Positions 12,629-57,348 of a DNA stretch of 64,000 nt are shown here, piece after piece. Both the position numbers and the translations under genes were made by a program. Each line of letters opens with the position of its first letter. Position 1 is the first letter of the stretch. The notes below the pieces were generated by a model. It had not been told where the DNA came from and made no database searches. It saw only the letters and a list, made by a program, of their open reading frames with translations. Origin of the DNA: Alphaproteobacteria bacterium (GTDB taxonomy: Bacteria; Pseudomonadota; Alphaproteobacteria; Rs-D84); assembly GCA_015062545.1 (NCBI GenBank), contig SUUL01000002.1, positions 114,995 through 178,994 of the forward strand, given 5' to 3'.

Positions 12629-12634
12629 TAATCA

Positions 12635-42089: not shown

Positions 42090-42120
42090 CTGGGGGGGGA
42101 TGTACCCCCCAGTATTATTT
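42090..42120. terminator. bidirectional terminator hairpin (GGGGGGGG-atgta-CCCCCC)
   Basis: GC hairpin flanked by A/T runs on both sides; separates host operon from phage-like cluster. Confidence 0.65.
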
Positions 42121-42375
42121 TATAACTGCACCTTTGATAAGGTTCAGGTCTTCTTTGATGTCGTCTATTTTTATCTGAATTTGACCGATGCCGGTTTCTA
42201 GTATCGTTGTGCGATTTTCCAATGCCGTTATGCGTGAATCCACACGTTCTAGTTCGGTTATGGAAAAATCCTGACGGGCAGCCCAATATATTACGCCCCC
42301 AATAAACGCAATTAAAAACCAACTGTCGCGTAACAAATCCAGCAATCCAAATGCCGTGGCAGCCCGTGTCGTCAT
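42115..42375 (-). CDS. phage-cluster hypothetical protein with TM segment
   Basis: 86 aa, one hydrophobic helix, coiled-coil C-terminus. Confidence 0.4.
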   Translation of the reverse strand: MTTRAATAFGLLDLLRDSWFLIAFIGGVIYWAARQDFSITELERVDSRITALENRTTILETGIGQIQIKIDDIKEDLNLIKGAVIK

Positions 42376-42376
42376 C

Positions 42377-42577
42377 TTATTTATCCCCCCTGCCCCGCGT
42401 TATGTGCGTTTCAATCTGTTGTACCAATGCACGCTGGGATTCATGCCAACGCAACTGAAAATCTGTCGCGTTGCATCCCAATGTGCGATTCAATATCGTG
42501 TCACGCAAATGCTGTAATACCGCCATACCCGCAGGTGTGGAAAAACAGCGCGCATACTGTAAATCAATATCTGTCAT
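42377..42577 (-). CDS. phage-cluster hypothetical protein
   Basis: 66-aa ORF tightly packed after portal gene. Confidence 0.35.
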   Translation of the reverse strand: MTDIDLQYARCFSTPAGMAVLQHLRDTILNRTLGCNATDFQLRWHESQRALVQQIETHITRGRGDK

Positions 42578-42580
42578 CTG

Positions 42581-43810
42581 TTATTCCCCCAAGGCCGTTT
42601 CAATCGCCGTCATTTGGGCAATAGGTGCAATATATTTCAATTCTGCATCACCATGTAATGTTATTGGCGCAATAACACCACGACTGGATAATATCTGTAA
42701 TCCACGGTCACATAACGGCCTGATAAATTCATGCAACAAGCGACCATACGTCGCACCCAATATACGCATCATGTCTGCGTTGCGTGCCATAATTTCTGTG
42801 GCTGTCATTTCTTTTTCAGACAATAACCCCAGTCTGTCCGCCAATAATGCATGGCGAATACGTTCACGCAAATCTTTCAACACCAGTTGCGATACATCAA
42901 AGTCCGCACCACTGGCCAATGGCGTTAAGCCTGACGAACCAACCGCCTTGGGGATAATTGCGCCGGGGGTTAAATTGATGTTATTCAGGTTTATTACACC
43001 GTCATCGTCCGCCTGCCAGATGCCGGATACGGCAATTGTTGCATTCTTTAATACCAATTCTACAACCTTGTTGGCGGTTTTTATATCCGGTAATGCACGC
43101 AAGACAGGACCGCGACCATATAATTCACCCGATGATACAGACCAACGAAAGATAATATATGGATTCGTTTCAAATGTACCTGTGGACACAATATTATTTT
43201 CAATATCACCACCAACATCCAACCAGGCTGTAAATTCTGTACCAACCAATGACTGGACCAGTTTTAATGGTGTTTCTGGATTCTGTTTAATGGTGTCGCG
43301 CAGGTTGTTGGGCGGTGTCCATGTTGGATAACGTTCCATGACTTCACATGCCGGCATTGATGTAGTGTGAAATACTGCGTTGGGTAAAATGGCAATGTCT
43401 GACATCGGAATCGCTGTAAATGTAAACGCAGATGACGCGCCAATCGGCGATTGTGCCATAAATAAGCAAGCCGTCCCCAAAACGACCAAGTCCATATAAC
43501 ATTGATGTATAACTGTGTAAAAATTAGAATCGTTCAGATTTGCACGTAATGCGTTTGTGGCATATTCTGCATCTGGTGACATGATGCTTTCTGGGACAAG
43601 TGTTAACCACATAGATTCTGGCGGGGTTAACAATGTATAAATTGATGCCGCCAAATTATCTGCCGCATCCATCGCAGTTGCATCAAACAATGTTGCCGCA
43701 TCATCATCGGCAGTTGGCATGGTATATCTGCGCGCGCTGTCCCAGCGGTTTTGCCATGGGGCGCGCATATCCAAGGCGCGTTTATATAAACTTTGCAGGT
43801 TTTGTTGCAT
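42581..43810 (-). CDS. T7-like portal (head-tail connector, gp8-like) protein
   Basis: N-terminal 'YKRALDMRAPWQNRWDSARRYTMPT...DNLAASIYTLLTPPESMWLTL' parallels T7 gp8 'YERLKNDRAPYETRAQNCAQYTIPS...NNLASKLMLALFPMQTWMRLTI' (from memory). Confidence 0.6.
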   Translation of the reverse strand: MQQNLQSLYKRALDMRAPWQNRWDSARRYTMPTADDDAATLFDATAMDAADNLAASIYTLLTPPESMWLTLVPESIMSPDAEYATNALRANLNDSNFYTVIHQCYMDLVVLGTACLFMAQSPIGASSAFTFTAIPMSDIAILPNAVFHTTSMPACEVMERYPTWTPPNNLRDTIKQNPETPLKLVQSLVGTEFTAWLDVGGDIENNIVSTGTFETNPYIIFRWSVSSGELYGRGPVLRALPDIKTANKVVELVLKNATIAVSGIWQADDDGVINLNNINLTPGAIIPKAVGSSGLTPLASGADFDVSQLVLKDLRERIRHALLADRLGLLSEKEMTATEIMARNADMMRILGATYGRLLHEFIRPLCDRGLQILSSRGVIAPITLHGDAELKYIAPIAQMTAIETALGE

Positions 43811-43839
43811 AAGGTTTCTCCTTTGGTTTTGTGTTATGT

Positions 43840-44706
43840 TTATATGTTGAAATTCGTGTTGGCTGAAAATGTCTTTATCGTGCCACCCAATGGGCGAATA
43901 AGTGTTGCAGGATGTGCAATCGCACCGGCAACGGCATCCAGGCCGTCATCATGCATGCCATGCGCCATGGGAGACCACCCCAACATTTCTGCCATCAAAG
44001 GGGTCTTTTGCACGCGAATATGTGCATGCAAATGTCCCGTTGTTAAAACTGGTTCAATCGCGTCTAAAATTCTGTCTGATTTGGCCCGAACGTTTGATAC
44101 GCGGGTTACGTAAATGCATAAGCCACGCCGCGTGGCACAATCGCGCATTATTTCCGGCAAGCCACCACCAATCCCGTTCGTTTCAATAGTTATCCGATGC
44201 AAACCACGCGCATGCATAAAATCCAGAACTTGATTGCACTGATTGGACAATGGATATTGTTCCGTATCAGACACCGTCAAATACAAAATGTCATGAATAA
44301 ATACATTGCGCGCCTTGTCATCACGATACAGTAACACACACGCACTGCCGTCACGATTGCGGCGACCACTGGATGGATCCCAATATAAAATGCTGCCGGT
44401 TATTAAATTATTACCCAGTTTTGCCGTGCGTGGTTCAAATTCGTCATCATAGAAATGCAGACTGCCGGGATCAAGGCGCGCACGTTCGGGCGAAATAAAT
44501 TCCAACATCATTTGTGCCGAAAAATGTCGCGCACCAACCGTTTCACGCATACTGTTTATCTTTTCAATCGGAAAAAGTTCCGGCCACGCGGGATTTCCCG
44601 CCGTATCAACAATGGGAATTTTTAATAATTTATACCCACTTAAAAAAGGCGTTGAAAAAGCAAAATTTTCATATACCATGGGCATAGAAGAAAAGGATTT
44701 TGACAT
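43840..44706 (-). CDS. terminase large subunit, C-terminal nuclease domain (separate ORF)
   Basis: 'DPSSGRRNRDGSACVLLY' first catalytic Asp motif and terminal 'MHDDGLDAVAGAI' motif; the open frame has no upstream ATG beyond an internal ATG at 44706 preceded by a GGGGG RBS. Confidence 0.6.
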   Translation of the reverse strand: MSKSFSSMPMVYENFAFSTPFLSGYKLLKIPIVDTAGNPAWPELFPIEKINSMRETVGARHFSAQMMLEFISPERARLDPGSLHFYDDEFEPRTAKLGNNLITGSILYWDPSSGRRNRDGSACVLLYRDDKARNVFIHDILYLTVSDTEQYPLSNQCNQVLDFMHARGLHRITIETNGIGGGLPEIMRDCATRRGLCIYVTRVSNVRAKSDRILDAIEPVLTTGHLHAHIRVQKTPLMAEMLGWSPMAHGMHDDGLDAVAGAIAHPATLIRPLGGTIKTFSANTNFNI

Positions 44707-46270
44707 GGATTTTACCCCCAAAACATTACCCACCAATCTGGAAGCAGAACAGGCCGTATTGGCCGCGGTTTTAATGAATAATCGCGCATTGGAACGTGTG
44801 TCAGAATTCTTGCGGGCAGAACACTTTTCACACCCCGCACATCAAGAAATATTCCGTCTGGCAGAACGTCAATTCGCCGCAGGCATACCGTTTGATATTA
44901 TTACCGCAAAAAACTATCTGGATCAGCAAGGCGTGTTGGAATCTGTTGGCGGGGTTGATTATCTGACACAATTATCTGGCGCAGGTGCAACCGTTGTTAA
45001 TGTAGAGCAATATGGACGTATCGTTTATGAACACGCATTACGCCGTGATTTGATTGCGTTGGGCCAAGATATTACAGACAAGGCCTTTATTGAAGATTTG
45101 GATAATCCTGTGGCGCGTCAGATTGAATTGGCCGAACAGAAACTGTTTGATATGGCAACCGCAGGTGCATCTGAACGCGAAGTAACATCCATTTCAACCG
45201 CATTGGAATCTGCATTGAAAGAAGCAGAAATCGCATACAAGGCCGATGGGCAGTTATCCGGTCTGACAACTGGATTGACCGCACTGGATAAATCAATCAG
45301 TGGCTTGCACCATTCTGACTTGATTATTATCGCGGGCCGTCCGGCGATGGGTAAGACAACATTGGCGATGAATATCGCGTTTAATGCCGCCAATGCCATT
45401 GCATACAATCGTGCAAATCAAAATTATAAAGGCGCGGTTGTGTTCTTTAGTCTTGAAATGTCGGCATCACAGTTGGCGGCGCGTGTGCTGTCTTCACAAT
45501 CCAAAATTCCTGCATCTGCAATGCGTGAAGGAACACTGACCGATGAAGATTTCTTGAAAATGTCACAATATTCTGCAGCCATTGGTAAAGTTCCGTTATT
45601 CATTGATGACACGCCAGGTATGTCCGTACCAATGATGCGTACACGCGCCAGAAGACTGGCACGCAAACATGGCGGTATTGCATTAATCGTCATTGACTAT
45701 CTGCAGTTGATGACCGCCCCAGGTGGCAAACGCAGCGATAACCGGGTACAGGAAATTTCTGAAATTACCCGTGGTCTGAAAATGCTGGCCAAGGAACTGG
45801 ACGTGCCTGTAATCGCACTGTCACAGTTGTCGCGAAGCGTGGAATCACGTGATGACAAACGACCACAGTTGGCTGACTTGCGCGAATCAGGGTCTATTGA
45901 ACAAGACGCGGACATCGTTATGTTTACGTATCGCGAAGAATATTATCTGCAAAATCGCGACCCGTCCGAAAGATTATCAAACACAACAAACAGCACAATG
46001 GTCGAATCGTGGCAAAAAAGACTGGAACGCGCACGCGGCAAAGCAGATATTATTATCGGTAAAAACCGTCACGGCCGTCCAGAAACTGTACGAACTGCAT
46101 TCTTTGGGGATTACAGCTTGTTCGATAACCTGGACGAATTCCAAACACGGGGCGAAAATGAATTTGCACAACCTGCACCAACAATTTCCGCAGCCGCATT
46201 GGGGCCAGACCCCGAATTTGAACCAACCGCCATCGATATTGATGCAATCCCAGATGATATGCCAATGTAA
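44678..46270 (+). CDS. dnaB: replicative DNA helicase DnaB
   Basis: 'LEAEQAVLAAVL' N-domain, Walker A 'AGRPAMGKTT', 'IVIDYLQLM', 'VIALSQLSR'; start is either 44678 or 44705. Confidence 0.85.
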   Translation: MGIEEKDFDMDFTPKTLPTNLEAEQAVLAAVLMNNRALERVSEFLRAEHFSHPAHQEIFRLAERQFAAGIPFDIITAKNYLDQQGVLESVGGVDYLTQLSGAGATVVNVEQYGRIVYEHALRRDLIALGQDITDKAFIEDLDNPVARQIELAEQKLFDMATAGASEREVTSISTALESALKEAEIAYKADGQLSGLTTGLTALDKSISGLHHSDLIIIAGRPAMGKTTLAMNIAFNAANAIAYNRANQNYKGAVVFFSLEMSASQLAARVLSSQSKIPASAMREGTLTDEDFLKMSQYSAAIGKVPLFIDDTPGMSVPMMRTRARRLARKHGGIALIVIDYLQLMTAPGGKRSDNRVQEISEITRGLKMLAKELDVPVIALSQLSRSVESRDDKRPQLADLRESGSIEQDADIVMFTYREEYYLQNRDPSERLSNTTNSTMVESWQKRLERARGKADIIIGKNRHGRPETVRTAFFGDYSLFDNLDEFQTRGENEFAQPAPTISAAALGPDPEFEPTAIDIDAIPDDMPM

Positions 46271-46347
46271 TTGATAATTATTTTCTTGCGCCGTGCCGAT
46301 AAATTGACTATTATTTTGTCAAGAAATAACTGTTTTAGGAGTTAGAC

Positions 46348-47355
46348 ATGGCACAAGAAGAAATTATCTTTCCAAATAATATTCGTAACATCCGTTTGGC
46401 AAATGGTATGAAAATGACAGAACTGGCGCGTCAGGCCGGGTTGTCTTTGTCCGCTGTTTCCAAAATCGAAAAAGGTGTGCGCCGATTAAACCAAAAACAG
46501 TTGTTGAATATTTGCAATATCTTGGGATGTAAATTGTCCGATATTTTCATCAAAGAATCCGATGATGTCGCAAACCAATGGCAAGATGAAATTAAACGCC
46601 GTATGACAGACAATGAAAATAATGGTCTGAAAATATTCGGCAGTGGTCTGCGCAAAATCCGCCAACAGGCCGGCAAAACAATCGCCCGTGCCGCAAAAGA
46701 TGCAGGTATGACATTGTCTGTATATCACAAGATAGAAGTCGGACAACGTGAAATATATACCAATGAAATTGAACCGTTGGCAAAATCTTTTGCATTAGGC
46801 GCAGAAGAACTGTTTGAAAAAATCGCGAATCTGTACAAGTCTGGCGAACTGAACAAACACATGAACAAGGTCAAAGAACGTGTAAAATCTGTATTGGAAC
46901 CCGGCAGTCCATTGTCTGGTATCGATATGGGTGGTGGACTGTATGGCGCAAAATTGTATGACAGTGCACGTAAAAAACTGATTCCTGTGTTTGGAACACC
47001 ATCTGGCAAAGCATTAACCTTGAAGAAATCAGATAAAACCATGATTGTCGCACCAATATCACTGGAGGGACGTAATGGTATTTACGCAGTGGTACCAAAT
47101 GCCAAACGTTTGGGTGGAATCATACCTGAAAAATCTTATGTGTTTGCAGATGCGTTGGTAACACCAAAAGTTGGTGATATGGCAATCTGTATGGATGTTG
47201 ATTTTGATACACTGGATGCAGATACCAACGTGGTCGCGCATATCGTAACAGTAAAACAAGATGCCAAGGGTAAGATTTACGGTCAAGCCATGTTCCCAGA
47301 AGAAAAAATTAATGCCAAAACAATGCACAAAATTATTATGATTGTTATGGAATAA
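46348..47355 (+). CDS. CI/LexA-like repressor: two HTH_XRE domains + S24 peptidase-like C-terminus
   Basis: two 'LS.SAVSKIEKG / ...TLSVYHKIEVG' XRE HTH units; C-terminal beta-rich domain with Ser/Lys spacing like the S24 family. Confidence 0.55.
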   Translation: MAQEEIIFPNNIRNIRLANGMKMTELARQAGLSLSAVSKIEKGVRRLNQKQLLNICNILGCKLSDIFIKESDDVANQWQDEIKRRMTDNENNGLKIFGSGLRKIRQQAGKTIARAAKDAGMTLSVYHKIEVGQREIYTNEIEPLAKSFALGAEELFEKIANLYKSGELNKHMNKVKERVKSVLEPGSPLSGIDMGGGLYGAKLYDSARKKLIPVFGTPSGKALTLKKSDKTMIVAPISLEGRNGIYAVVPNAKRLGGIIPEKSYVFADALVTPKVGDMAICMDVDFDTLDADTNVVAHIVTVKQDAKGKIYGQAMFPEEKINAKTMHKIIMIVME

Positions 47356-47385
47356 TTACCCCCCTTTGGAAAGGAGAGAGCAAAC

Positions 47386-48024
47386 ATGAAAGCAACCGCA
47401 CGCGTAACTGCACAAAGACTGTTAAATCTGTATCGGCAAGAACATGTAATTATTGGCGGATGGGCCGCCGTAAACCCAATATTTGTCCAAGATGCAACTG
47501 ATATGGTTATGCAAGAGTTGGCCGATATGCCAACAGGAAATGCATTAATCGCACATATCAATAATCTGCGCAGCGGTAAAACCCCAATGAATTCTATTGA
47601 ACGCGAATTATTACCATACGGTGGCATGATGGCAGAAGCGTTGCCATCAATCACACTGAACCAAAACCAATGGCAAGAATTGACCCAGGCAATAGAACAA
47701 TTTACCCCAAATCAGCCAGGTTTGGACAAGTTTACTGCGTTGGATGTGGTACGTCAATTCGGTGCAGAATGGCCAACCGCAATTCGTGCAATCCTGACAG
47801 AACGCCCGCATTTGTTAGAAAAGTGGGCAACCATTAACCAAACATATAACGCATATAAATTATGGAATACCGCACATGAAATTATCGCAAATCCACTGTC
47901 GGAACGTGTGCGCGCCCAAGTACAGGCAGACATGCCAGAATATGAAACTTATTTGCCGATGTTTGGTGATGCAGGTTCGGAATTATTGGTAAAACTGCGC
48001 ACTTTTATCAGCAGTCTGAATTAG
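47386..48024 (+). CDS. hypothetical protein
   Basis: 212-aa ORF; its stop overlaps the convergent terminase ATPase ORF stop. Confidence 0.4.
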   Translation: MKATARVTAQRLLNLYRQEHVIIGGWAAVNPIFVQDATDMVMQELADMPTGNALIAHINNLRSGKTPMNSIERELLPYGGMMAEALPSITLNQNQWQELTQAIEQFTPNQPGLDKFTALDVVRQFGAEWPTAIRAILTERPHLLEKWATINQTYNAYKLWNTAHEIIANPLSERVRAQVQADMPEYETYLPMFGDAGSELLVKLRTFISSLN

Positions 48025-48626
48025 TTTCCGATTGCAGTGCGGTAAATCGTATCGTACGCATGCGGTGTACCAATATATATCATCGTTCCGGTTGGCGACA
48101 ATATAAAATCTAATTCACGTAATCTTTCACGCAAATTTTCACGTTTCTGTGCGGTGTTTGCCGTGTTTGGAACCTCTACGTCATCGCATATAATCAAATC
48201 TGCACGCATACCGGTGATATTTCCGTGTACCCCTTGGCAAATTACAGACGGTTCGCGAATACCAATCGGGCGTTTAACAGTGATACGACCCGTGGCCCAC
48301 TCTTTTTTACCAACAGGTATCATATCAGTACACCATGGATGATTTTCTAAAATATGCCTGATATGACCAACCATACGTGTTGCCAGACCACTTTCCGCCG
48401 ACAAAATCAAAATTCTGGTTTCTGGGCGCAGGTACAAAACACATGCTGCAAAAACGCCAACCACCGTGGATTTGCCAGAATGACGAAACGCCATCAACAA
48501 TCCACGATGTGGCGACACAGATAATATATCAACCAAGAAATTCATTATTCGCCGATGATGTGCCGGTGTCTGATATCCCAAAACACGATTCCATTCGTCT
48601 AAAAACGCGTTAAATTCCGTATTCAT
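48021..48626 (-). CDS. terminase large subunit, N-terminal ATPase domain (separate ORF)
   Basis: Walker A 'AFRHSGKST', Walker B 'LIICDDVE', motif III 'YIGTPH'; terminates right after motif III. Confidence 0.7.
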   Translation of the reverse strand: MNTEFNAFLDEWNRVLGYQTPAHHRRIMNFLVDILSVSPHRGLLMAFRHSGKSTVVGVFAACVLYLRPETRILILSAESGLATRMVGHIRHILENHPWCTDMIPVGKKEWATGRITVKRPIGIREPSVICQGVHGNITGMRADLIICDDVEVPNTANTAQKRENLRERLRELDFILSPTGTMIYIGTPHAYDTIYRTAIGN

Positions 48627-48650
48627 TTTGGCAATATCCCAAGAAGCAGG

Positions 48651-48998
48651 TTATCCAACAATGTCATCCAATCTGGATAATAAAGATTGTAATAATTTGG
48701 GCTTTTTGACGGCGGATTCTTTAATTTTCTTTAAGTTATTTTTGCGTTTTTCTTCATAAGGTGCCGCCGTTTCTGATTTCAGACGTTTCAAAACCGCCCC
48801 TTGGGTTATGCCATCACCAGACACGCCAGATGCACCATATTTGGCGCGTTGACTGGCCAAAACCTTTTTTATCAGATTTGTTTTTTCAGTTTCGTCTGCC
48901 GCCATTTGCGCCAAGATTTCTTTACGCGCAGATTTTGCAGATTTTTTGGCATCTTTGTATTCCAAGATGTCCGTTACATCAGATACAATTTGTCCCAT
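48651..48998 (-). CDS. hypothetical protein (position suggests terminase small subunit)
   Basis: 115-aa basic/helical protein immediately upstream of terminase ATPase ORF. Confidence 0.3.
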   Translation of the reverse strand: MGQIVSDVTDILEYKDAKKSAKSARKEILAQMAADETEKTNLIKKVLASQRAKYGASGVSGDGITQGAVLKRLKSETAAPYEEKRKNNLKKIKESAVKKPKLLQSLLSRLDDIVG

Positions 48999-49022
48999 AT
49001 TTTATCCTTTTTTTTAATAAGT

Positions 49023-50753
49023 TTAGACAGAATACCAACCATGTATGCACACAGATGAAACTGTGGCGGGGTATGCCGCGCTGCCATGTAATGTCCATAA
49101 TGGACGCGTGCCGTCATGACTGGTTCCTAAACAATTTAACGATACATCGCCGGTAAAACCGTTGGATGCAGTGTCATAAATGTCATTAGGCAACACAGCC
49201 TGATGAGTGTTTATATAAATAGATTTCGTATCAATGATACGCACAACAATCTTGCGTAATTTTATCCGGGTAACATTATGATTAGATATGCGTAATGGTA
49301 ATGAAGATGCACAAAATGAATAGTCATATTCATCTGCATCACGTAACGCATTACTGTCAAAATATTCCAAGAATACTTGGCCATCGCGCAATACAACAAC
49401 ATACGTTTTCTGATTACATACGGTGACAGATAAAAATTGTCCCGATGTTCTGTATGTACCCCATGCAGATACACCCAAAGCCGCATTTTGATTCAAAACC
49501 GCCATGGTGCCGTCTTGTTTTACGATAAACAACTGGTGCAAGGATTCGTTGTATGCAATATCCAATGGATTTTGTATCAAATGCTTGGATAACATGCTTA
49601 GATCATTGGCATTGTAATGTTCACCCAATTCATCCAGACTTAGTTCGCGAATATCGCAACCGTTGGCAGAAACAAAAACTGTTGCGCCTTCTATGCGTTG
49701 GGGCGGTAAGTATCGCGCGGAATAAGAACCAACAGATGTGTGCTGTTTGATATCAACAGACGAAGGTGTCAGGGGTTTACTGGATATGGCCCATTCGCCA
49801 ACATTGGTTAATATTTGCAAATTATCACTGCTGACCACGGTACATATTTGTTGACGCTGTTGCGACAACAAAGACAGAAAGATGCCTTCGTCATCCAAGC
49901 CTGTGCCAACAGAAAAGTTTTGGTGATTGCCGACATGTGACATCCATATCCCAGATGGCCAATCACGTGAACCACCAAATACCAATCTGTCTTGGTGAAA
50001 TGTTATACTGCGCGGCCAACCACGATGTTTACTAAAGGCGGCCTCGCGCCAATCTGTGATTGCGGTATCTGTTGCAGTATAAGAACCATTGGTAAATACT
50101 GTGACCTGGGTTTCATTAATATATTCTGTAATAACCCACTGACGATTCTGAAGATACAGACGTGTATTAACATAATCAGGTGTCCAAAACGCACGATTGG
50201 TGCTGAACACTGCGTAATTATTTCCCAATGAACTGGTGCTGATTTGAATCTGAACATCAGATGCATCTTCAAATTTTACAAATGGAATATTCAATGTCAT
50301 GTCTGAATCGTTGCGCGAAAAAGCAAAATCAGACATATAAAATCTGCCACTGTCCCAATATAATGTTTGTGGCACATAATCAGGATGAACAAATATCATC
50401 GTCCCAAAACGCTGGGCATATTGAATATTAAACAAGTCATCATATCCCCAAGGTGTTATCAAATCTTGGAATAAGTTATTGTCACGATATATAAACATGT
50501 GACAATCGGTCAATACAATTAAATATTCTAAATTGTCCGATGCAGAAAATGGTATCAAACGTGCATGACCGTCCAGTAACGCAACAGATGTTAAACCACA
50601 TCGCCGCCGCAGACCACCACCTGACAAGACATCCATATTTTCCAGACGTGACAGACCATGAATATTATCATGGTTGTAAAATTCTGGGGCAACTTCGCCA
50701 TTTGCAAATGAACTTTGTGTTTTTATAAAATCAGACATGTTATATTTCCCCAT
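49023..50753 (-). CDS. T7 gp12-like tail tubular protein B (short form)
   Basis: N-terminal 'FANGEVAPEFYNHDNIHGLSRLENMDVLSGGGLRRR' parallels T7 gp12 'LKGGISQQPDILRYPDQGSRQVNGWSSETEGLQKRPP' (from memory); follows the gp11-like gene. Confidence 0.45.
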   Translation of the reverse strand: MGKYNMSDFIKTQSSFANGEVAPEFYNHDNIHGLSRLENMDVLSGGGLRRRCGLTSVALLDGHARLIPFSASDNLEYLIVLTDCHMFIYRDNNLFQDLITPWGYDDLFNIQYAQRFGTMIFVHPDYVPQTLYWDSGRFYMSDFAFSRNDSDMTLNIPFVKFEDASDVQIQISTSSLGNNYAVFSTNRAFWTPDYVNTRLYLQNRQWVITEYINETQVTVFTNGSYTATDTAITDWREAAFSKHRGWPRSITFHQDRLVFGGSRDWPSGIWMSHVGNHQNFSVGTGLDDEGIFLSLLSQQRQQICTVVSSDNLQILTNVGEWAISSKPLTPSSVDIKQHTSVGSYSARYLPPQRIEGATVFVSANGCDIRELSLDELGEHYNANDLSMLSKHLIQNPLDIAYNESLHQLFIVKQDGTMAVLNQNAALGVSAWGTYRTSGQFLSVTVCNQKTYVVVLRDGQVFLEYFDSNALRDADEYDYSFCASSLPLRISNHNVTRIKLRKIVVRIIDTKSIYINTHQAVLPNDIYDTASNGFTGDVSLNCLGTSHDGTRPLWTLHGSAAYPATVSSVCIHGWYSV

Positions 50754-50760
50754 TTAATAA

Positions 50761-51318
50761 TTAAAAACGTGTACTGATTAGTGAAAACTCTTGGATTCCA
50801 TCAGCCACCGATATTGTACTGTCTATGAATTTTGCCGTTTGCAATTCTGATTCATACAGTGCCGCCAACGTGCGAAATACGGTCTGATTTCCCGTCAATG
50901 GAATACAAAATTCCATTGCCAAGCGTGTTGCCAACATGGATACAAAATAACTGGGGTATGTGTCTGGTGTCATACGCACAATCGCCAAAATTTTAATTGA
51001 TTCACTGGACGATTCTATGTATTTTCCAACCAATTTGCCATCAGATTTCAACACACGCAGAACATTATCAGGAACCAAAAAATTACCATCTGAATTTTTT
51101 CTCAATGATATTTCTTGGGTTGCAAAATGCCACGGATGTATTGACAGCAAAGAATCCGCCACAGCATCATACAACGTACGCGCCAACCGCGAATTCACCG
51201 AATCATCTGTCCAGGATTGAATTGGACTTTCACCCAACTTTAACAAGGCCATTGAACATAAATCTAGTTTTGTAAGCATTGGTATTCCTTTTTGTATTAT
51301 AAAAAACAAGGGCGACAC
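50761..51318 (-). CDS. T7 gp11-like tail tubular protein A
   Basis: 'LDLCSMALLKLGESPIQSWTDDSVNSRLARTLYDAVADSLLSIHPWHF' parallels T7 gp11 '[22 protein letters not shown]...[21 protein letters not shown]'. Confidence 0.55.
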   Translation of the reverse strand: MSPLFFIIQKGIPMLTKLDLCSMALLKLGESPIQSWTDDSVNSRLARTLYDAVADSLLSIHPWHFATQEISLRKNSDGNFLVPDNVLRVLKSDGKLVGKYIESSSESIKILAIVRMTPDTYPSYFVSMLATRLAMEFCIPLTGNQTVFRTLAALYESELQTAKFIDSTISVADGIQEFSLISTRF

Positions 51319-51343
51319 AAAATGCCGCCCGACAATATATAAA

Positions 51344-51574
51344 TTAAGCCAACGAAACCGTTGTTACATTCAATTCTGTTATATTAATTTTCTTGATGGC
51401 TGTATTATCAGATGCATTAATCATGATAATGTCGCCAATGTTCATCAATGTTTTAACATTGTTGAAATATCCATTGGCGGTAATTGTTGCCAATGTTTCA
51501 TTTGCACTGTAATGCCACAATGTAAATCCATTAGCATACGCGATAACAGATAAATTTTTATTCTGAAATGCCAT
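51344..51574 (-). CDS. hypothetical protein downstream of capsid gene
   Basis: 76-aa ORF. Confidence 0.3.
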   Translation of the reverse strand: MAFQNKNLSVIAYANGFTLWHYSANETLATITANGYFNNVKTLMNIGDIIMINASDNTAIKKINITELNVTTVSLA

Positions 51575-51614
51575 GTGTTTTTCCTTTTGGTTTATGATTT
51601 ATTCAAATTGTGAT

Positions 51615-52436
51615 TTATTGTGCATCTGAACATTTAACGCGAACGATGCCATCACCATCAATCAAAACTGCGCCTTGGGACATGCTGTTGCTGATAAAGT
51701 GTGCCGCACGTTCACCATGCCAAGAAATATCTGTTTTGACTTCTTGACCACATGCATGACCGATGCTGGATGCGTGATAAATAAAGCAATCGCGGTTATC
51801 AGATGACACAGGTAAACCATTATACAACACCCATGTAATACCCAACCATTTGCGCGCTTCAAATCCATTTACCAATGGGCTGGCATTACCAACATAATCT
51901 GCAGACACAAATTCATCCATTGACAGCAATTCATTCCACTGATGTACACCAACAACCGCAAAGCGGCGACCATCATCTGGGACATCATTTGTGTTCAACA
52001 CTTCAACCGCAGACAAGATTAAATCTTTGGTCAAACCGGTGGAATAGTCACCAACATTTGCAGTTGCTGTATTCATGGCAGACACAATCAATTCATCTGT
52101 CTTGCGACCCAATGCGTACGCACCCGCAGATGCGACAACGCGGCGTTCATCAACATTTACCTTTAATTCATCCAATGCATCAACCCAATCGCCCGCATAA
52201 TAATCTTGCAAAAGACATTCTACGGGTTCATGATTCAAATTCATCACAGGAACAATGCCATGACGAGATTTGGTACTGGCGGTGCCACGACCAACTTTTT
52301 GAAAAGTTGTAGATGCGCCAACAACACCAGATTTACTGCGTACTGTTGAACGTAATTTGGTGCCCATTTGCTGATAAGCCAAATGAACATCTGCTTCGAA
52401 TTGTTTCACAAAAACATTATCTATGGAAACAGACAT
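51615..52436 (-). CDS. T7-like major capsid protein (gp10 family)
   Basis: 'FEADVHLAYQQMGTKLRSTVRSKSGVVGASTTFQKVGRGTAS' parallels T7 gp10A 'VLTAFARTSVTTSRHMVRSISSGKSAQFPVLGRTQAA'; start at the Met with an AAAGGA RBS. Confidence 0.65.
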   Translation of the reverse strand: MSVSIDNVFVKQFEADVHLAYQQMGTKLRSTVRSKSGVVGASTTFQKVGRGTASTKSRHGIVPVMNLNHEPVECLLQDYYAGDWVDALDELKVNVDERRVVASAGAYALGRKTDELIVSAMNTATANVGDYSTGLTKDLILSAVEVLNTNDVPDDGRRFAVVGVHQWNELLSMDEFVSADYVGNASPLVNGFEARKWLGITWVLYNGLPVSSDNRDCFIYHASSIGHACGQEVKTDISWHGERAAHFISNSMSQGAVLIDGDGIVRVKCSDAQ

Positions 52437-52654
52437 AAAAAATCCTTTGGTTAAAAAGTTAAAATTACGATGTGATAACACACATCACCAAAATTTTGTA
52501 TTTTGGTTATGCAAATTAATGCGCCATAAAAAACAAAAGCTATCGGGTTCGTATAAAACGAATTATCCATAAAAAATATCAGTCAGACTGTACGTAATCA
52601 TCTGACTGATACTTTTGAAAAACCCCCGCATCGCGGGGGCTGATATATTGTTAA

Positions 52655-53092
52655 TTATTTTTTCTTAACAACTTTTTTTGCAGCTGGTTTTTTTGCAACT
52701 ACTTTCTTTGCAACTGGTTTTTTTGCAACCGGTTTTTTTGCAACTGGTTTTTTTGCAGCTACTTTTTTTGCAACTGCTTTTTTTGCAACTGGTTTTTTTG
52801 CAACTACTTTTTTTGCAACTGGCTTTTTTGCAGCTACTTTCTTTGCAACTGGCTTTTTTGCAACTGCTTTTTTTGCAACTGGCTTTTTTGCAGCTACTTT
52901 TTTTGCAACTGGTTTTTTAGCTGCTACTTTTTTTGCAACTGGTTTTTTTGCAACAGGTTTTTTAGCTGCTACTTTTTTTGCAACTGGTTTAACCGCCGCT
53001 TTCTTTGCAGGTGCAGCTTTTTTTGCAACAGGTTTTGCAACAGGTTTAACCGCTGCTTTCTTTGCCGCAGATTTTCTAAATAAGAATGCCAT
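52655..53092 (-). CDS. Lys/Ala-rich histone H1-like (Hc/AlgP-like) DNA-binding protein
   Basis: 145 aa, almost entirely [10 protein letters not shown] pentapeptide repeats encoded by 15-nt tandem DNA repeats. Confidence 0.6.
52676..53070. repeat. tandem 15-nt repeat array (coding for [10 protein letters not shown] units)
   Basis: visible periodic 'ttttttgcaactggt/ttttttgcagctact' units. Confidence 0.85.
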
Positions 53093-53198
53093 TCTTTCTC
53101 TCCTTGTTATGGTTTTGGATAGAACAAACCCTTTTTGTTCTTACTTTGTATTTTATCTTAAACACAAAACTTAGTAAAGAAGAAAGTGATATTTTTTC

Positions 53199-53855
53199 TT
53201 ATGAATATAATTTTTTAAAACCATTTTCTATTTTTCTGATGTATTCAGAATCATTATCACGCCAATATTTTGGATCACGCATCATACGCCGCAAATCTGC
53301 ATCTGTTAAATTTTGCGTATCATTATTTGCAGTATGAACATCTGGTTCCATCGATTGCATCATCTTGTACATGCTTTGAATTCCCTGGGGTGTGGCGCAT
53401 AACGCATCAAATGCATCACGTGGTAAAAATTTTTCACCAAATGAATTTATTGCAACCAGTGCATCTTTCATTTTTTCATCACCACCGAAAAAATGTTTTA
53501 ATTCATTTATTGCTTTGCTTTCATTTTGAACAGAATACAAATCTGAAATCACAGGTGATAAAAATTCATTTGCAATGTTATAAATTTTTTCAACTTGCGA
53601 ACAGGTTAATCCTATTTCAAAAAATTTGTTACGTAAATTTTCATCATCATATAATTCGTGTGTTGGATATTCTGATGCAGATTCTGGAACACCAATCGCA
53701 CGATTAAATTTATAACGCGTTTGTTCGTCAGAATTTTCATTTGGAACAGATATCATTGTTCCAATCTTTTTTTCTAATTCAGTGTATGATTTTATTAATG
53801 CTTCTGAATTAAGTGTACCGTCTTTGTTCAAAAATTTTTCTGGGATATTATCCAT
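53199..53855 (-). CDS. hypothetical protein (scaffolding-protein position)
   Basis: acidic helical 218-aa protein between lysis genes and capsid, at the T7 gp9 position; AAAGGA RBS. Confidence 0.3.
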   Translation of the reverse strand: MDNIPEKFLNKDGTLNSEALIKSYTELEKKIGTMISVPNENSDEQTRYKFNRAIGVPESASEYPTHELYDDENLRNKFFEIGLTCSQVEKIYNIANEFLSPVISDLYSVQNESKAINELKHFFGGDEKMKDALVAINSFGEKFLPRDAFDALCATPQGIQSMYKMMQSMEPDVHTANNDTQNLTDADLRRMMRDPKYWRDNDSEYIRKIENGFKKLYS

Positions 53856-54045
53856 TATTTTTTCCTTTGGTTTCATTAGATTTACGCAGAAAATAAATTC
53901 CCCCTAATGTGAATATCGCTTGCAACATCGTAAATATATCTGTGTCGCCAACCAGGTATGCCGCAACCGCAGATATAATTCCCGTTGCAGAAATTATATA
54001 TGTGCGATATCCAGATAACTGACCGCCCTTGATTATTTTTTTCAT
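53848..54045 (-). CDS. holin-like small membrane protein
   Basis: 65 aa, two hydrophobic segments, charged C-terminus; directly downstream of endolysin. Confidence 0.4.
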   Translation of the reverse strand: MKKIIKGGQLSGYRTYIISATGIISAVAAYLVGDTDIFTMLQAIFTLGGIYFLRKSNETKGKNNG

Positions 54046-54056
54046 CTTGATTCCGA

Positions 54057-54467
54057 TTATAAGTAAAACAACATGCCATCAATATCTGCAATATACCCAC
54101 GCGCAACCGCCCAAGACGGCAAAACATCTGTGTTATGAAATCTGGTCGCACCAAAACACATATCAACCAACCCACCAGACAACATGCGGCGCGCAACACG
54201 TACACACATCTGAAAACCACGATTATTTGCGGGAACACTTAACCGTGAATAACGTGCAGAATCAGTACATAATGCGTCAAAAATATTTTTATCTGTCACA
54301 ATACTGTATATGTCTGTACCAGATGCATCAGATAAATTTTTTATCATTGATGTCAGTGCTTCTACACCAAGTAAAGTATTTGCACCCGTTTGTGCATAAA
54401 CAACACGTGCAATTTTGTATGCCAACGCAGCACCCGTATCGGTGTTCTTGATTAATGTCATTTGCAT
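54057..54467 (-). CDS. cell-wall hydrolase (SleB/CwlJ Hydrolase_2 family) endolysin
   Basis: 'IARVVYAQTGANTLLGVEALTSMIKN...IYSIVTDKNIFDAL' matches the Hydrolase_2 pattern (AEARGE..G..AVA.VVLNR...QF). Confidence 0.5.
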   Translation of the reverse strand: MQMTLIKNTDTGAALAYKIARVVYAQTGANTLLGVEALTSMIKNLSDASGTDIYSIVTDKNIFDALCTDSARYSRLSVPANNRGFQMCVRVARRMLSGGLVDMCFGATRFHNTDVLPSWAVARGYIADIDGMLFYL

Positions 54468-54632
54468 GCCGAAAAAACCTTTTGGTAAAAAAATTGCCAT
54501 GCATAATGCATGACAATAAAAAAACCACAACGCATGTTGTGGGCAGTATCTTAGCTGTTCATGTTCATGATGTTATCATATTTTTACTTAAAAGTCAAGA
54601 TAAAAATATAAACCCGCGGATTTCCGTGGCTT

Positions 54633-55313
54633 TTACGCGATTATTTCATCGCCATAAACCAACAGATATCGTGTGTCGCGCCGCAAAACCAATGCGCCAT
54701 TTTCATTAATACCGATTAATTCTGCCGGTTCGCCCTGGTATTTAACCATGCGGTTCAGGCACCCCGCCAATTCTGTCCAACGCGCACGAACCGCACGAAA
54801 ATCCGCGCGCCGCCATTTATCAATATTACGCATCAAGCGATTTAATAATTCGTTCATTGGAATTTCAGAATAATTGTCCAGTTTTGTGGTCTTGTATCTG
54901 TCCACAGTTGGATTGGAATTTACATTTATACCAATTCCAACAATAACAAAACGCCCCGAATACTCAATCAATGTACCAGCAACCTTGCGGTCATCTATTA
55001 AAATATCATTAGGCCATTTGATTGTCGGATGAATACCAAAAGATGCGATTGTTTCCGCAATCGCCACCGCCACAGAATACGACAGGCGCGGGTCACGTTC
55101 CGGGCAATCAAAAATAAAACTGATATACAAATTGCCATGGTGCGATACCCACGAACGGCGATACCTGCCACGGCCGGCAGATTGTGCCGCCGCCAAAATC
55201 GCGGTATGATCCGTTGCGCGCCCAGACACAATTAGTTCATGTGCGTAATCTTGGGTGCTGGGGATTTTATCCAAAGATATTAACTTATAACTTGCCAAGA
55301 CTGTACACCCCAT
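54633..55313 (-). CDS. birA: biotin--[acetyl-CoA-carboxylase] ligase (class I, no HTH)
   Basis: 'AQSAGRGRYRRSWVSHHGNLYISFIF' BirA signature. Confidence 0.85.
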   Translation of the reverse strand: MGCTVLASYKLISLDKIPSTQDYAHELIVSGRATDHTAILAAAQSAGRGRYRRSWVSHHGNLYISFIFDCPERDPRLSYSVAVAIAETIASFGIHPTIKWPNDILIDDRKVAGTLIEYSGRFVIVGIGINVNSNPTVDRYKTTKLDNYSEIPMNELLNRLMRNIDKWRRADFRAVRARWTELAGCLNRMVKYQGEPAELIGINENGALVLRRDTRYLLVYGDEIIA

Positions 55314-55704
55314 TTATGTTTTTAATGAATCCGCGACCATATTTCTGGCGCAGTTGATATATCGCAGTGTCCAATGCATGCGTAGAAACATCCGGTGCAT
55401 ATCCCAACGCGCTTTTTAATTGCCCAATAGACATACCGCCTGTCTTGTACAACATGACCACTATTTGTGTTTGAATATGGGGTAATACGGTGTTTTGACC
55501 AAAAATGGCATATAATGTTTCAGAATTATCACATGCCGCCAATATCACCGACTTTAATTCCATGGGGGTTGGACATTTACCCAGTTCCAGATCATCAAAA
55601 TTGATAATTCCTGTGTCCAACGCAGGCATAACAGTCGCGCCCAAATCGGCCAAGATTTGCCGCCAAATGTTGTCTGATGCATAGATCCGAATGCCTGATA
55701 ACAT
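55285..55704 (-). CDS. winged-helix DNA-binding protein (OmpR/trans_reg_C-like)
   Basis: C-terminal 'MSIGQLKSALGYAPDVSTHALDTAIYQLRQKYG' resembles the OmpR-family wing. Confidence 0.4.
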   Translation of the reverse strand: MLSGIRIYASDNIWRQILADLGATVMPALDTGIINFDDLELGKCPTPMELKSVILAACDNSETLYAIFGQNTVLPHIQTQIVVMLYKTGGMSIGQLKSALGYAPDVSTHALDTAIYQLRQKYGRGFIKNINGVYSLGKL

Positions 55705-55796
55705 ATAAGAACTGTACCCTATTGTAATTTAATTGTCCATAAAAAACCACACAGGTTTATATCTGTGTGGTTTTTGGGGTGTCGAAACTGTGTTTT

Positions 55797-56042
55797 TTAT
55801 TCGCGCCCTGTATCAGGAACGTCTATAAACTTGGTAAAATCCTGAATTTTAGCCCCAGTGGACGATAAAATTTTGGAAATACTGTTTGTAGAAGGCCATC
55901 GCGGTTGCCCTTCTTTTGACCAACGTTTACTTTTGTTAAATGTTGTCGGGTCTAATCCGCTGCACTTTGCCAAACCGGAACAAGACATTCCATGTTCTGT
56001 TGCAAAGCGTTCTATGGCGCGCCAAACATCGTCATGTGTCAT
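55797..56042 (-). CDS. HTH transcriptional regulator (alphaproteobacterial CI-like N-domain)
   Basis: 'DVWRAIERFATEHGMSCSGLAKCSGLDPTTFNKSKR...RWPSTNSISKIL' is the common alphaproteobacterial short repressor pattern. Confidence 0.6.
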   Translation of the reverse strand: MTHDDVWRAIERFATEHGMSCSGLAKCSGLDPTTFNKSKRWSKEGQPRWPSTNSISKILSSTGAKIQDFTKFIDVPDTGRE

Positions 56043-56483: not shown

Positions 56484-57089
56484 TTATTCTGCATCTGCAG
56501 CTGATTCTTCTGCAACCGGTGCCGCTGCGGCAACAGTTTCTTCTGCAACCACTTCTTCAGCAGCTGGTGCTTCTTCGGATTCTTCTACTTTCTTAGAACC
56601 GAATGTCAGAACCTTGCCAGAAACCAATGCATCAATTTCGTCTTGTGTCTGTGCAACATAAATTTTCACAGGAACAATAACGTCTGGATGCAATGCAATC
56701 TGGGTATCAAATGCACCAACAGATTTAATTGGGGCACCCAACATAACCTGGGCTGATTCAACAGATACATTTGCAACTTCTTTCAACATACGTGCAATAT
56801 CACGTGTTGATACAGAACCGTACAACTGACCTGTGTCACCGGCCTGGCGAATCATGTGCAGTTTTGCATTCTTGACCGCATCAACATTTGCCTGGGCTGA
56901 TTTCTTGGCTGCTTCTTGGCGGGCAGTCAATTCTGCTTTCTTGGCTTCGAACAATGCAACGTTTTCACGTGTAAAACGCATTGCCTTGCCGTTTGGCAAC
57001 AAGTAATTACGGGCAAAACCTGTTTTTACTTCTACTGCATCACCGATATTACCCAATTTTGTGATTTTTTCTGTCAAAATAACTTTCAT
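56484..57089 (-). CDS. rplI: 50S ribosomal protein L9 with acidic Ala/Glu-rich C-terminal extension
   Basis: 'MKVILTEKITKLGNIGDAVEVKTGFARNYLLP' L9 N-terminus. Confidence 0.9.
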   Translation of the reverse strand: MKVILTEKITKLGNIGDAVEVKTGFARNYLLPNGKAMRFTRENVALFEAKKAELTARQEAAKKSAQANVDAVKNAKLHMIRQAGDTGQLYGSVSTRDIARMLKEVANVSVESAQVMLGAPIKSVGAFDTQIALHPDVIVPVKIYVAQTQDEIDALVSGKVLTFGSKKVEESEEAPAAEEVVAEETVAAAAPVAEESAADAE

Positions 57090-57120
57090 AATCTGTCCTT
57101 ATTGTTTTATAAGTTAGGGA

Positions 57121-57348
57121 TTAACCCAAATTGTTACGAACGAATGGCATCAAGCCCAAATGACGTGCACGTTTAATGGCGGTTGCCAAGGCGCGCTGAT
57201 CCTTTTGGGATACGCCACTGATACGAGATGGCACAATTTTACCACGTTCTGTGATATAATGTGACAATGTCTTGATGTCTTTGTAATCAATTACTTTACC
57301 CTTTAATGGGTTAGCTTTCTTACGATAAATTGCTGCACGAACTGCCAT
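57121..57348 (-). CDS. rpsR: 30S ribosomal protein S18
   Basis: '[50 protein letters not shown]'. Confidence 0.9.

Follow-up and report, generated by a model that had tools for sequence, protein, structure and literature searches.

The 64 kb of DNA analysed in this work (hereafter the window) are part of the ~0.9 Mb genome of "Candidatus Enterousia", a gut alphaproteobacterium of the uncultured order Rs-D84, and carry at positions 42115-56042 a minus-strand series of phage-type genes. We consider it highly probable that this series is a domesticated and selected module for particle formation, DNA packaging and lysis. Judging from its genes, we also favour, with a confidence a little better than even, the more specific reading that the series descends from a T7/LME-1-like podovirus as a domesticated remnant inherited vertically, and that it acts as a gene transfer agent (GTA)-like viriform making DNA-filled short-tailed particles which are released by lysis. 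This reading has its observed basis in the identities of the genes, the lack of replication and integration genes, the fixation and intactness of the cluster, purifying selection, co-divergence with the host and conserved catalytic motifs.

The series was delimited by Pfam, PHROGs and PDB sequence searches. In minus-strand order it reads s81, u139, birA, SleB-like lysin, s65, scaffold, H1-like gene, capsid, s76, gp11, gp12, s115, terN, terC, portal, s66 and s86, with the genes u212, xre and dnaB lying between terN and terC, the two halves of the large terminase gene (terL). An earlier note on this DNA had described a co-oriented minus-strand array; this holds for the phage-type genes but not for dnaB, xre and u212, which are on the plus strand. 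In the same note the portal, capsid, gp11, gp12, large terminase (TerL), scaffold, H1-like protein and SleB-like lysin had been named largely correctly, as judged by Pfam, PHROG and PDB matches, but its list of open reading frames (ORFs) had omitted the conserved 76-aa s76 (51344-51574). The comparison of codon usage and GC content that it had proposed revealed that both are host-like in the cluster. Coordinates given below for the genes of the cluster and for the terminator after s76 refer to the minus strand unless otherwise stated.

Conservation, selection and vertical inheritance

A capsid scan of one genome per GTDB species recovered 396 species with a relative. The best 80 of these 396 have capsids 86-96% identical to that of the window and are metagenome-assembled genomes (MAGs) of "Candidatus Enterousia" and of unnamed gut Alphaproteobacteria, with ruminants, horses, rabbits and humans as source animals. 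Together with 53 Enterousia-type contigs of IMG/VR, the best 80 species-level loci (L001-L080) formed a comparison set of 133 loci, onto which every gene of the window was mapped by tblastn. The relatives are MAGs and some bins are mixed. In MAG RGIG4147, three contigs (L009, L036 and L051) encode one capsid each, and these match the window capsid with 95%, 90% and 90% identity; this bin probably mixes strains or species, and counts based on MAGs should be read with caution.

Gene order and orientation were as in the window in 79 of the 80 species-level loci and in all 53 IMG/VR contigs, the sole exception among the 133 being L044, in which the s81-u139-birA block is inverted relative to the cluster. 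No integrase, polymerase or large core protein was found in the 133 related loci; the complete prophage that the earlier note had thought might reside at this site in relatives was not encountered, and 133 of 133 carry the same reduced set instead. The genes are intact as well. Uninterrupted ORFs were counted for capsid (78/79), portal (62/63), terN (73/74), terC (67/67), gp11 (78/79), gp12 (73/77), scaffold (64/67), s115 (75/75) and the lysin (67/67), that is, in at least 94% of the loci. Ratios of nonsynonymous to synonymous substitution (dN/dS) were estimated by a simple pairwise method near synonymous saturation (Nei-Gojobori, pairs with dS < 1.5; median proportion of synonymous differences ~0.7) and came to 0.054 for s76, 0.059 for the capsid, 0.074 for the portal, 0.097 for terN, 0.168 for terC, 0.175 for s115, 0.177 for gp11, 0.181 for gp12, 0.189 for the scaffold and 0.28 for the lysin, as compared with 0.059 for dnaB, 0.10 for priA and 0.133 for birA among the host genes. 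The constraint on the capsid equals that on dnaB, and purifying selection on the cluster is as strong as on host housekeeping genes. Furthermore, pairwise protein distances of host genes (dnaB, birA and xre) and of phage-derived genes are correlated (Spearman 0.81); the cluster is vertically inherited and co-diverges with the genes of its host.

A prophage remnant drifting to loss, one of the alternatives raised in the earlier note, is a very improbable account of these data. It would agree with the fact that most of a T7-like genome is missing and the terminase is split, that a fibre stub found in relatives is being lost, and that two loci are disrupted, L045 being multiply damaged (portal, terN, gp11 and scaffold) and L059 having stops in scaffold and gp12. 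Yet at least 94% of the loci, which number more than 130 and come from different species, have kept this reduced set intact, the particle genes have dN/dS values of 0.05-0.19 with saturated synonymous sites, and the catalytic motifs are invariant or nearly so. The genomes of Enterousia measure 0.75-1.0 Mb, and a reduced genome of less than 1 Mb purges useless DNA (PMC12306168). The correlation of host and phage distances also argues against recent horizontal copies of one element. Because of synteny, intact ORFs, dN/dS and co-divergence taken together, chance, a decaying prophage and a recent or mobile element are effectively excluded as explanations. The same evidence disposes of a mobile phage satellite, the other alternative of the earlier note, and upholds its proposal of a podovirus-derived domesticated particle system.

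Phage functions missing from the cluster

A tblastn comparison of the window with the complete ORF sets of T7, Pelagibacter phage Hodr (EXVC031P) and several related elements gave matches only inside the cluster. Genes for RNA and DNA polymerases, for gp14-16-type proteins and for a fibre are missing from the window, in agreement with the earlier note, which had reported the internal core gp14-16 and the polymerases as absent. Neither the single-subunit RNA polymerase nor the T7-type replication genes of Autographiviridae were found in the window, and since there is no RNA polymerase the cluster is not an autographivirus. Within the cluster there is also no integrase, no att repeats and no replication gene besides a host-type dnaB. 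The statement of the earlier note that an integrase is lacking is thus true of the cluster but not of the whole window, whose only integrase (14835-15983) belongs to a separate low-GC island by a tRNA-Lys gene, 26 kb away.

An active temperate phage or mobile satellite integrating beside birA is the explanation to which we give the least credence. In its favour, the virus-prediction pipelines of IMG/VR call ~50 such regions viral, and repressor-like genes with a helix-turn-helix (HTH) domain are present. This is outweighed by the missing integrase, att repeats and replication genes, by the interleaving of birA and dnaB with the phage-type genes, by the identical position in all species and by the location of the window integrase in another island. 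Likewise, the cluster is not a satellite, because it has no integrase, replication module or mobility.

Head genes

The portal gene (42581-43810) is of the T7 gp8 type, with matches to PF12236 (3.3e-81) and to PDB entries 9efk, 6r21 and 3j4a, the last two being T7 gp8 entries. It is followed by s66 (42377-42577), a Bbp19-like small phage protein of 66 aa (PF25181, 6.5e-9) whose homologue is located 3' of the portal in Hodr and in a wider family of compact clusters that is described below. The scaffolding protein (53199-53876) is of the T7 gp9 type (PF05396, 1.2e-8).

The major capsid protein (51615-52436) has 273 aa, its true start being the methionine of MSVSID, and matches PF19821 (7.6e-71) and PDB 9eg4 (2e-24), the major capsid protein of Legionella phage LME-1 and closest solved relative. 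The gene had been called a T7 gp10-like capsid in the earlier note; it does encode the major capsid protein, but of the Phage_capsid_2/LME-1 family and not of the T7 gp10 sequence family. The LME-1 capsid is T=7 and is joined to a T7-like tail (PMC12407071). The AlphaFold2 model of the window capsid, built from a shallow alignment (pLDDT 44), was too poor for a fold search, and an exact-sequence look-up of this capsid returned no record. A 5-kb human-gut phage contig encodes a capsid 63% identical to it.

Between scaffold and capsid lies a gene for a Lys/Ala-rich, histone H1/HC2-like protein (52655-53092; PF07382, 3.5e-21). A K/A-rich ORF occupies this place in nearly all Enterousia-type loci and is missing in the phage relatives, where scaffold adjoins capsid. 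The length of the gene varies widely among L001-L080, with longest open segments of ~90-205 aa. In L064 and L076 the longest frame in this slot is not K/A-rich, and their copies may be frameshifted or replaced. In L137, a contig of a different organism discussed below, the slot is taken by an ORF of 202 aa whose product, as judged by eye, appears to be a membrane protein with basic ends.

After the capsid gene comes s76 (phrog_18004, 1.4e-13), and homologues occupy the corresponding place in Hodr, MT838907 and the wider family. Its slot matches that of the head-decoration protein of LME-1, which by accession order is listed right after the LME-1 major capsid protein, and s76 may therefore be a decoration protein; this assignment, like the holin and spanin-like ones made below, is based on position and architecture. 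The effective number of codons is 33.7 for the scaffold, the strongest codon bias in the region, 38.4 for the capsid and 35.7 for rplI (ribosomal protein L9), with most genes at 44-48. Scaffold and capsid also have the lowest synonymous divergence of the genes compared, and both features suggest that the two are highly expressed. Between head and tail genes an intrinsic terminator or attenuator (51310-51330) was predicted, a 9-bp stem followed by a T-run. A hairpin with T-run is found at this place after s76 in 53 of the 80 relatives with differing stem sequences, which marks it as a putative conserved attenuator reminiscent of the T7 Tφ after gene 10.

Tail genes and the fibre stub

Two short-tail proteins were identified, namely a gp11-like tail adaptor or tail tubular protein A (50761-51279; phrog_394, 4.7e-31; PF17212; PDB 8ck1_E) and a gp12-like tail nozzle or tail tubular protein B (49023-50753; phrog_376, 2.8e-80; PDB 8ck1_A 'Tail Nozzle', 2e-33; 9efk_M). 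They are followed by s115 (48651-48998), a conserved post-nozzle protein of 115 aa which is homologous to the post-gp12 ORF of L169 and which hhalign relates with a probability of 93.5% to the post-gp12 protein of L156, both of them compact clusters of the wider family; the L156 protein has a weak match to phrog_418 'internal virion protein'. The earlier note had placed a small terminase here. In hhalign comparisons s115 has no similarity to T7 gp14 or gp18, and searches of the PDB and of phage databases were empty, so that both small terminase and gp14 were rejected as identities. In most relatives a fibre gene separates s115 from terN, which puts s115 at the position of gp13-16 and not of gp18; it could be a remnant of an internal-virion protein.

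The fibre gene in question is an extra gene of ~180 aa present in ~58 of 75 relatives, and its product is the N-terminal tail-attachment domain of a gp17-type fibre (phrog_1640, 1e-13 to 1e-14; PF03906 weakly) with no receptor-binding part. The earlier note was thus right that this genome has no tail fibre, but most relatives keep the N-terminal stub. At its site the window has a deletion scar (48627-48650, no strand assigned), the gap between the neighbouring genes being ~25 bp as against ~550 bp in the relatives that have the stub. Where present, the stub is intact in 60 of 62 loci and under selection, with a dN/dS of 0.13; a neighbour-joining tree without outgroup root indicates its loss in at least five separate clades, that of the window included, and two loci have damaged copies.

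Such a stub brings up the possibility of a defective, helper-dependent fixed cluster whose fibres or receptor-binding proteins, ejection proteins and small terminase (TerS) are supplied in trans, either by other host loci or, in the manner of capsid-forming satellites, by a co-infecting podovirus. The stub consists of the tail-attachment domain only, as if it were an adaptor for a separate protein; known GTAs use several loci (PMC12946183), and the window covers 64 kb of the genome. The human-gut phage contig with the 63%-identical capsid also indicates that related phages may share the habitat. On the other hand, there is no integrase, excision or replication module, fixed position and co-divergence are unlike a mobile satellite, and the window holds no further homologues. 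If the parts acting in trans were encoded by the host, this explanation would merge with that of a GTA-like viriform. We regard helper dependence as improbable.

Split large terminase

The large terminase is encoded in two pieces. The N-terminal half, terN (48021-48626, 201 aa), comprises the ATPase core with Walker A, Walker B and C-motif (phrog_38, 1.4e-42; 33% identity to residues 55-215 of T7 gp19), and the C-terminal half, terC (43840-44685, 281 aa), the end of the ATPase domain and the RNaseH-like nuclease (phrog_38, 1.6e-32; PF22530). The start of terC agrees with a database gene call (P0122). When placed on the intact 510-aa TerL of L156, terN corresponds to residues 16-209 and terC to residues 206-480. 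The break is clean, with an overlap of ~4-6 residues and nothing lost, and falls within the ATPase domain, just past the C-motif. Across 75 loci the SGKST of Walker A and the IGTPH of the C-motif do not vary, and Walker B ((I/L)CDD(V/I)E) and the nuclease motifs (YWDPxxG, ExNGxG and HDDGxDA) are nearly invariant in 68-75 loci. The 120 closest database homologues of the two halves joined as terN+terC are without exception terC proteins of the split type. Among 1.84 billion representatives searched, the nearest other TerL relatives proved to be 45-52% identical and mostly 450-515 aa long, that is, intact.

Between the halves, on the plus strand, lie dnaB (44705-46270), a host-type replicative helicase gene, xre (46348-47355) and u212 (47386-48024). 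The product of dnaB is considered of host type because it reaches 617 bits with NF006606 (cut-off 540) and remains below the cut-off of the phage_DnaB model TIGR03600. The 335-aa regulator xre has two HTH domains (PF01381, matched twice) and a C-terminal domain, with a mean column identity of 87% and a dN/dS of 0.081; the idea, formed by eye, that its C-terminus is a degenerate S24 domain was not supported. The last gene of the block, u212, encodes a lineage-restricted all-alpha protein of 212 aa for which no informative structural neighbours were found. The dnaB-xre-u212 block is located between the terL halves in 67 of 67 species-level and 34 of 34 IMG/VR loci spanning the site. The starts of dnaB and terC diverge across ~20 bp (44685-44705), so that either the promoter of each gene must lie within the coding region of its neighbour, or the expression of terC relies on read-through that runs antisense to dnaB-xre-u212. 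A candidate for a conserved antisense terC promoter inside dnaB showed no excess of synonymous-site conservation and was dismissed.

A single IMG/VR contig, L137, bears on the age of the split. It belongs to a different organism with 31% GC, encodes a capsid 67% identical to that of the window and has the same permuted gene order; its terL is broken at the same place (…GTPHTENSIYY-stop), with a spacer of 335 bp and no dnaB. As far as this one contig can tell, the split appears to be older than, or independent of, the arrival of dnaB-xre-u212, and the two-piece terminase appears to be a working arrangement and not collateral damage. The 335-bp spacer of L137 contains promoter-like and terminator-like signals. 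Between terC and portal, in its interval 8416-11267, are two type-IV-pilin-like genes (10341-10787 and 10800-11267), recognised by eye from their N-terminal motif.

Several mechanisms that could restore one continuous terminase were considered and rejected. Programmed excision of dnaB-xre-u212, as in the skin-element model, found no direct or inverted repeats at the junctions and no recombinase. As regards an intron or trans-splicing, neither the dnaB-xre-u212 block of the window nor the spacer of L137 matched an Rfam intron family, even with the threshold relaxed to E ≤ 1. A split intein would need spare sequence, and terN and terC abut on the intact homologue. A seemingly 'fused' terminase (P0121) proved to be a terC with internal tandem duplication. 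In L084 (8228-9436), terC reaches 402 aa through an internal tandem duplication of ~120 residues, which may be an assembly artefact or real.

Lysis, regulation and boundaries of the cluster

Genes that are candidates for particle release by homology or position are those of a SleB-like cell-wall hydrolase or endolysin (54057-54461; PF07486, 8.5e-6, a borderline match; phrog_938), of s65 (53848-54045) and of s86 (42115-42375). A homologue of the lysin adjoins terL in the wider family. Directly after the lysin, s65 encodes a 65-aa protein with one hydrophobic window above the Kyte-Doolittle threshold and a second membrane segment seen by eye; the equivalent slot of L264 (10319-10846, after the lysin) is occupied by a PF11351 'GTA holin' protein (GTA_holin_3TM), and s65 is a putative holin. 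The product of s86 has a hydrophobic N-terminal stretch and, by eye, a coiled-coil-like remainder, with weak matches to PF10779 and phrog_1193. A protein of similar architecture is encoded just upstream of sleB in L169, and s86 might be an XhlA- or spanin-like lysis accessory.

The host gene birA (54633-55313), coding for biotin-protein ligase (TIGR00121, 144 bits, above cut-off), is syntenic in all loci and is separated from the lysin by a further terminator. Overlapping its start is u139 (55285-55704), a conserved 139-aa protein and possible winged-helix regulator with a weak Trans_reg_C match, syntenic in 64 of 65 loci with a dN/dS of 0.26. Beyond it, s81 (55797-56042) encodes an 81-aa Cro/CI-type HTH protein (weak PF13443) that shares 63% identity with the HTH domain of the L156 repressor, a protein of 210 aa combining HTH and Peptidase_S24 domains; the median identity of s81 across relatives is 93% and its dN/dS 0.05. 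By this likeness, s81 is taken as the remnant of the CI/LexA-like repressor of the element without the S24 peptidase domain. Together with xre and u139 it is a candidate regulator of the cluster. The earlier note had bounded the cluster by birA at 54530, but the phage-derived region runs on to 56042, and birA is embedded between the phage-derived s81 and the lysis genes.

At its other end the cluster is closed against a variable polysaccharide locus by a bidirectional terminator at 42090-42112, where the earlier note had reported one (at 42090). Neither the polysaccharide genes on this flank nor rpsF-rpsR-rplI on the other are common to the relatives, so the conserved unit extends from s81 to s86. 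In the window genome the ribosomal-protein genes rpsF-rpsR-rplI (56484-57686) lie between priA and s81. In none of the 80 relatives did tblastn detect any of them there, the distance between priA and s81 in these loci being 0.4-3.3 kb, and the arrangement in the window looks like a lineage-specific relocation of a ribosomal-protein operon beside the cluster.

Further away in the window, the P4-type tyrosine integrase mentioned above (Arm-DNA-bind_3 and Phage_integrase domains) heads an island of low GC (0.32-0.34; 14835-20228), which ends at the tRNA-Lys (20153-20228) and has a weak replication-protein match at 19302-19835. It forms a small integrative element of its own and has no relation to the T7-like cluster. 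A set of minus-strand cell-wall-active genes (10622-14244) includes a GH108 muramidase (10622-11134), a Tlde1/YkuD L,D-transpeptidase-like protein (12176-12628) and a protein of 413 aa (13003-14244) that carries a GH24 phage lysozyme domain at its C-terminus and has, in addition, a weak Mu-F-like match and, below cut-off, one to the BaGTA endolysin model.

Proposed mode of action

From these features we infer the assembly of particles, their content, release and delivery, as follows. The HTH regulators s81 (the repressor stump), xre and perhaps u139 would control the genes, under host control and in a subpopulation of cells. The head operon (scaffold, H1-like gene, capsid and s76) would be strongly expressed, the terminator after s76 would attenuate read-through into gp11, gp12, s115 and the N-terminal half of TerL, and a second unit would make the C-terminal half, the portal, s66 and s86. 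Portal, scaffold and capsid would then build a procapsid, probably of T=7 because the closest solved major capsid protein, that of LME-1, forms T=7 heads (PMC12407071). On the portal, TerN and TerC may reassemble into one ATPase-nuclease motor which, without a recognisable small terminase, would probably package available DNA ends by headful and with no sequence preference. Adaptor and nozzle would close the head, and the holin-like s65, s86 and the SleB-like hydrolase would lyse the producer cell and release the particles.

Several points weigh against the production of GTA-like particles. The entry of DNA into a recipient is the weakest part of the proposal, as the searches of the cluster and the window turned up neither ejection proteins nor a receptor-binding domain. 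Adsorption via the fibre stub is also dispensable, because the stub was lost at least five times, the window genome included. Entry might be provided by further loci, recipients might take up the DNA in some other way, or transfer might not be what the particle is for. Among the genes of the window none was recognised as a small terminase, and the ORF at the TerS position of L169 and L264, which overlaps the start of terL, has no homologue there. The function of the terminase in two pieces is deduced from selection, and the break is inside the ATPase domain. If the head is T=7, as is the closest solved capsid, its capacity would exceed the 14-kb cluster, which could be held whole, unlike in classical small-headed GTAs.

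The same points give some weight to a domesticated and selected module with a function other than transfer, an explanation that we hold to be unlikely, though less so than helper dependence. The module might interfere with infecting podoviruses that are related to it, through decoy capsids or by hijacking the parts that it lacks; it might be a device for killing or lysing partner cells, or serve regulated autolysis with release of DNA. In that case DNA would be packaged into heads incidentally or for some other end. Selection and fixation of the cluster are shown, whereas transfer is a proposal; ejection proteins, receptor-binding domain and TerS are absent, and the fibre stub was repeatedly lost. 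Moreover, the hosts are predicted to be obligate symbionts or parasites that cannot synthesise nucleotides, amino acids and fatty acids (PMC12306168). Nevertheless, the genes of the portal and of the two terminase halves, whose catalytic motifs are all kept, rank with the best conserved, which points to real packaging of DNA, and the adaptor and nozzle are kept intact, which points to a closed DNA-holding particle. No signature of a defence system was seen, and none was looked for. Thus a GTA-like viriform is still the explanation that we prefer.

Significance

To our knowledge only a few GTAs have been described, all of independent origin, and each new origin tests which parts of a phage are needed by a DNA-transfer particle that serves the cell. 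Here the origin would be a different type of virus, a T7-like podovirus, in an uncultured, genome-reduced and probably partner-dependent gut lineage. The cluster was kept where almost everything dispensable was lost, and its capsid is as constrained as the replicative helicase. If the cluster represents a new GTA family of such origin, its retention throughout the lineage would mean that particle-mediated DNA exchange, or another function of the particle, is indispensable even under extreme genome reduction, and the compact relatives in other chromosomes would be a large, unrecognised class of podovirus-type GTAs. The locus is also an example of essential host genes interleaved with a domesticated virus, and may represent a natural experiment in which a large terminase has long worked in two pieces. 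Virus-prediction pipelines call the module viral, which probably inflates prophage counts and may hide widespread gene exchange in gut and environmental microbiomes.

Comparison with known systems

The wider compact family, found in IMG/VR and in metagenome scans, has capsids 50-67% identical to that of the window and a GC content of 0.29-0.72. Its order is portal, s66, scaffold, capsid, s76, gp11, gp12, in some cases a post-nozzle protein and a fibre, then an intact terL and a SleB-like lysin. Like the cluster of the window, these clusters (L156, L165-L180 and L227-L293) have ~10 core genes in ~9-12 kb and are chromosomal, several being on chromosomal contigs of 180-865 kb. Two of them were examined. 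One has prfB and YhdP as its immediate host neighbours and the other genes for an EAL protein and for M16 peptidases, and neither has an integrase alongside. The interval from gp12 to terL measures at most 3.5 kb in the compact relatives, which leaves no room for proteins of gp15 or gp16 size. They differ from the window in their intact TerL (~500 aa), and several have a full-length fibre, a CI/LexA-type repressor with S24 domain and an ORF at the TerS position. We found no description of compact clusters of other bacteria in the literature searched; they may constitute a much wider class of domesticated podovirus modules.

Among complete elements, the closest relatives of capsid, portal, adaptor and nozzle are LME-1, Cobetia phage Carin-1, Hodr and other T7-like podoviruses. 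They share with the cluster the local order of portal, small gene, scaffold, capsid, small gene, adaptor and nozzle, but represent complete phages or mobile elements, in which the fibres are full-length, the terminase is unsplit, and large internal proteins and replication genes are present. In Hodr, ORFs of 783 and 1247 aa follow gp12. The Enterousia cluster is without all of these features; conversely, it has interleaved host genes and an H1-like gene between scaffold and capsid.

Capsid-forming phage satellites (cf-PICI) have their own capsid, portal and terminase and lack some virion parts, and in this the Enterousia cluster resembles them. However, cf-PICI satellites possess integrase, excision and replication genes and are mobile, patchy in distribution and helper-dependent, whereas the Enterousia cluster has no integrase, replication module, mobility or patchy distribution.

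With the RcGTA-type agents of Rhodobacter, Caulobacter and Dinoroseobacter the cluster shares a phage-derived set of head, tail, packaging and putative lysis genes without replication or integration genes, which is chromosomally fixed and vertically inherited in Alphaproteobacteria, is under purifying selection and has a codon bias of head genes suggesting high expression. Those hallmarks of GTAs that can be read from a genome, namely lack of autonomy, vertical inheritance with conserved synteny and purifying selection on structural genes, were found. So were those of a T7-like structural module, with gp8 portal, gp9 scaffold, gp11 adaptor, gp12 nozzle and gp19-type TerL. An HK97-type head-tail cluster with a TerS of reduced specificity, as in RcGTA, was not found in the window. 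The cluster is not of RcGTA type, because the gene families differ; the ancestry of RcGTA is an HK97-like siphovirus and here, as seen from the PF12236 portal, gp11 and gp12, gp9 scaffold and gp19-type TerL, a T7/LME-1-like podovirus. RcGTA has a small oblate T=3 head, as compared with a probable T=7 head here, and the system described here has a two-piece terminase and no recognised TerS, and is known from its genes.

The statement of the earlier note that known GTAs derive from HK97-like siphoviruses has been overtaken by FpGTA of Faecalibacterium prausnitzii, reported in 2026 as the first podovirus-like GTA-like element and verified by experiment (PMC12946183). Its particles of 40 nm contain host DNA fragments of ~9 kb; a candidate TerS is encoded, and genes for baseplate, fibre, receptor-binding protein and lysis lie in a second locus (PMC12946183). 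Compared by description only, FpGTA resembles the Enterousia cluster as a compact gut-bacterial operon of ~10 kb that encodes short-tail proteins besides terminase, portal, scaffold and capsid and lacks genes for replication. It differs by its host, a member of the Bacillota, by the TerS candidate and second locus, and by particles that have been seen.

In full-text literature searches we found no account of phage or GTA elements in Enterousia or Rs-D84, nor of T7-type GTAs. It is conceivable, at odds that we set somewhat below even, that the cluster represents a new and independent GTA (viriform) family which arose from a T7/LME-1-like podovirus, has a two-polypeptide TerL and no TerS, is fixed around the essential dnaB and birA of gut alphaproteobacteria with obligate host dependence, and is the first of such origin in Proteobacteria. 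Set beside the known systems, its new aspects are the ancestry, the host lineage, the two-piece terminase, the interleaved essential host genes, the lack of a TerS and the retention in a genome of less than 1 Mb.

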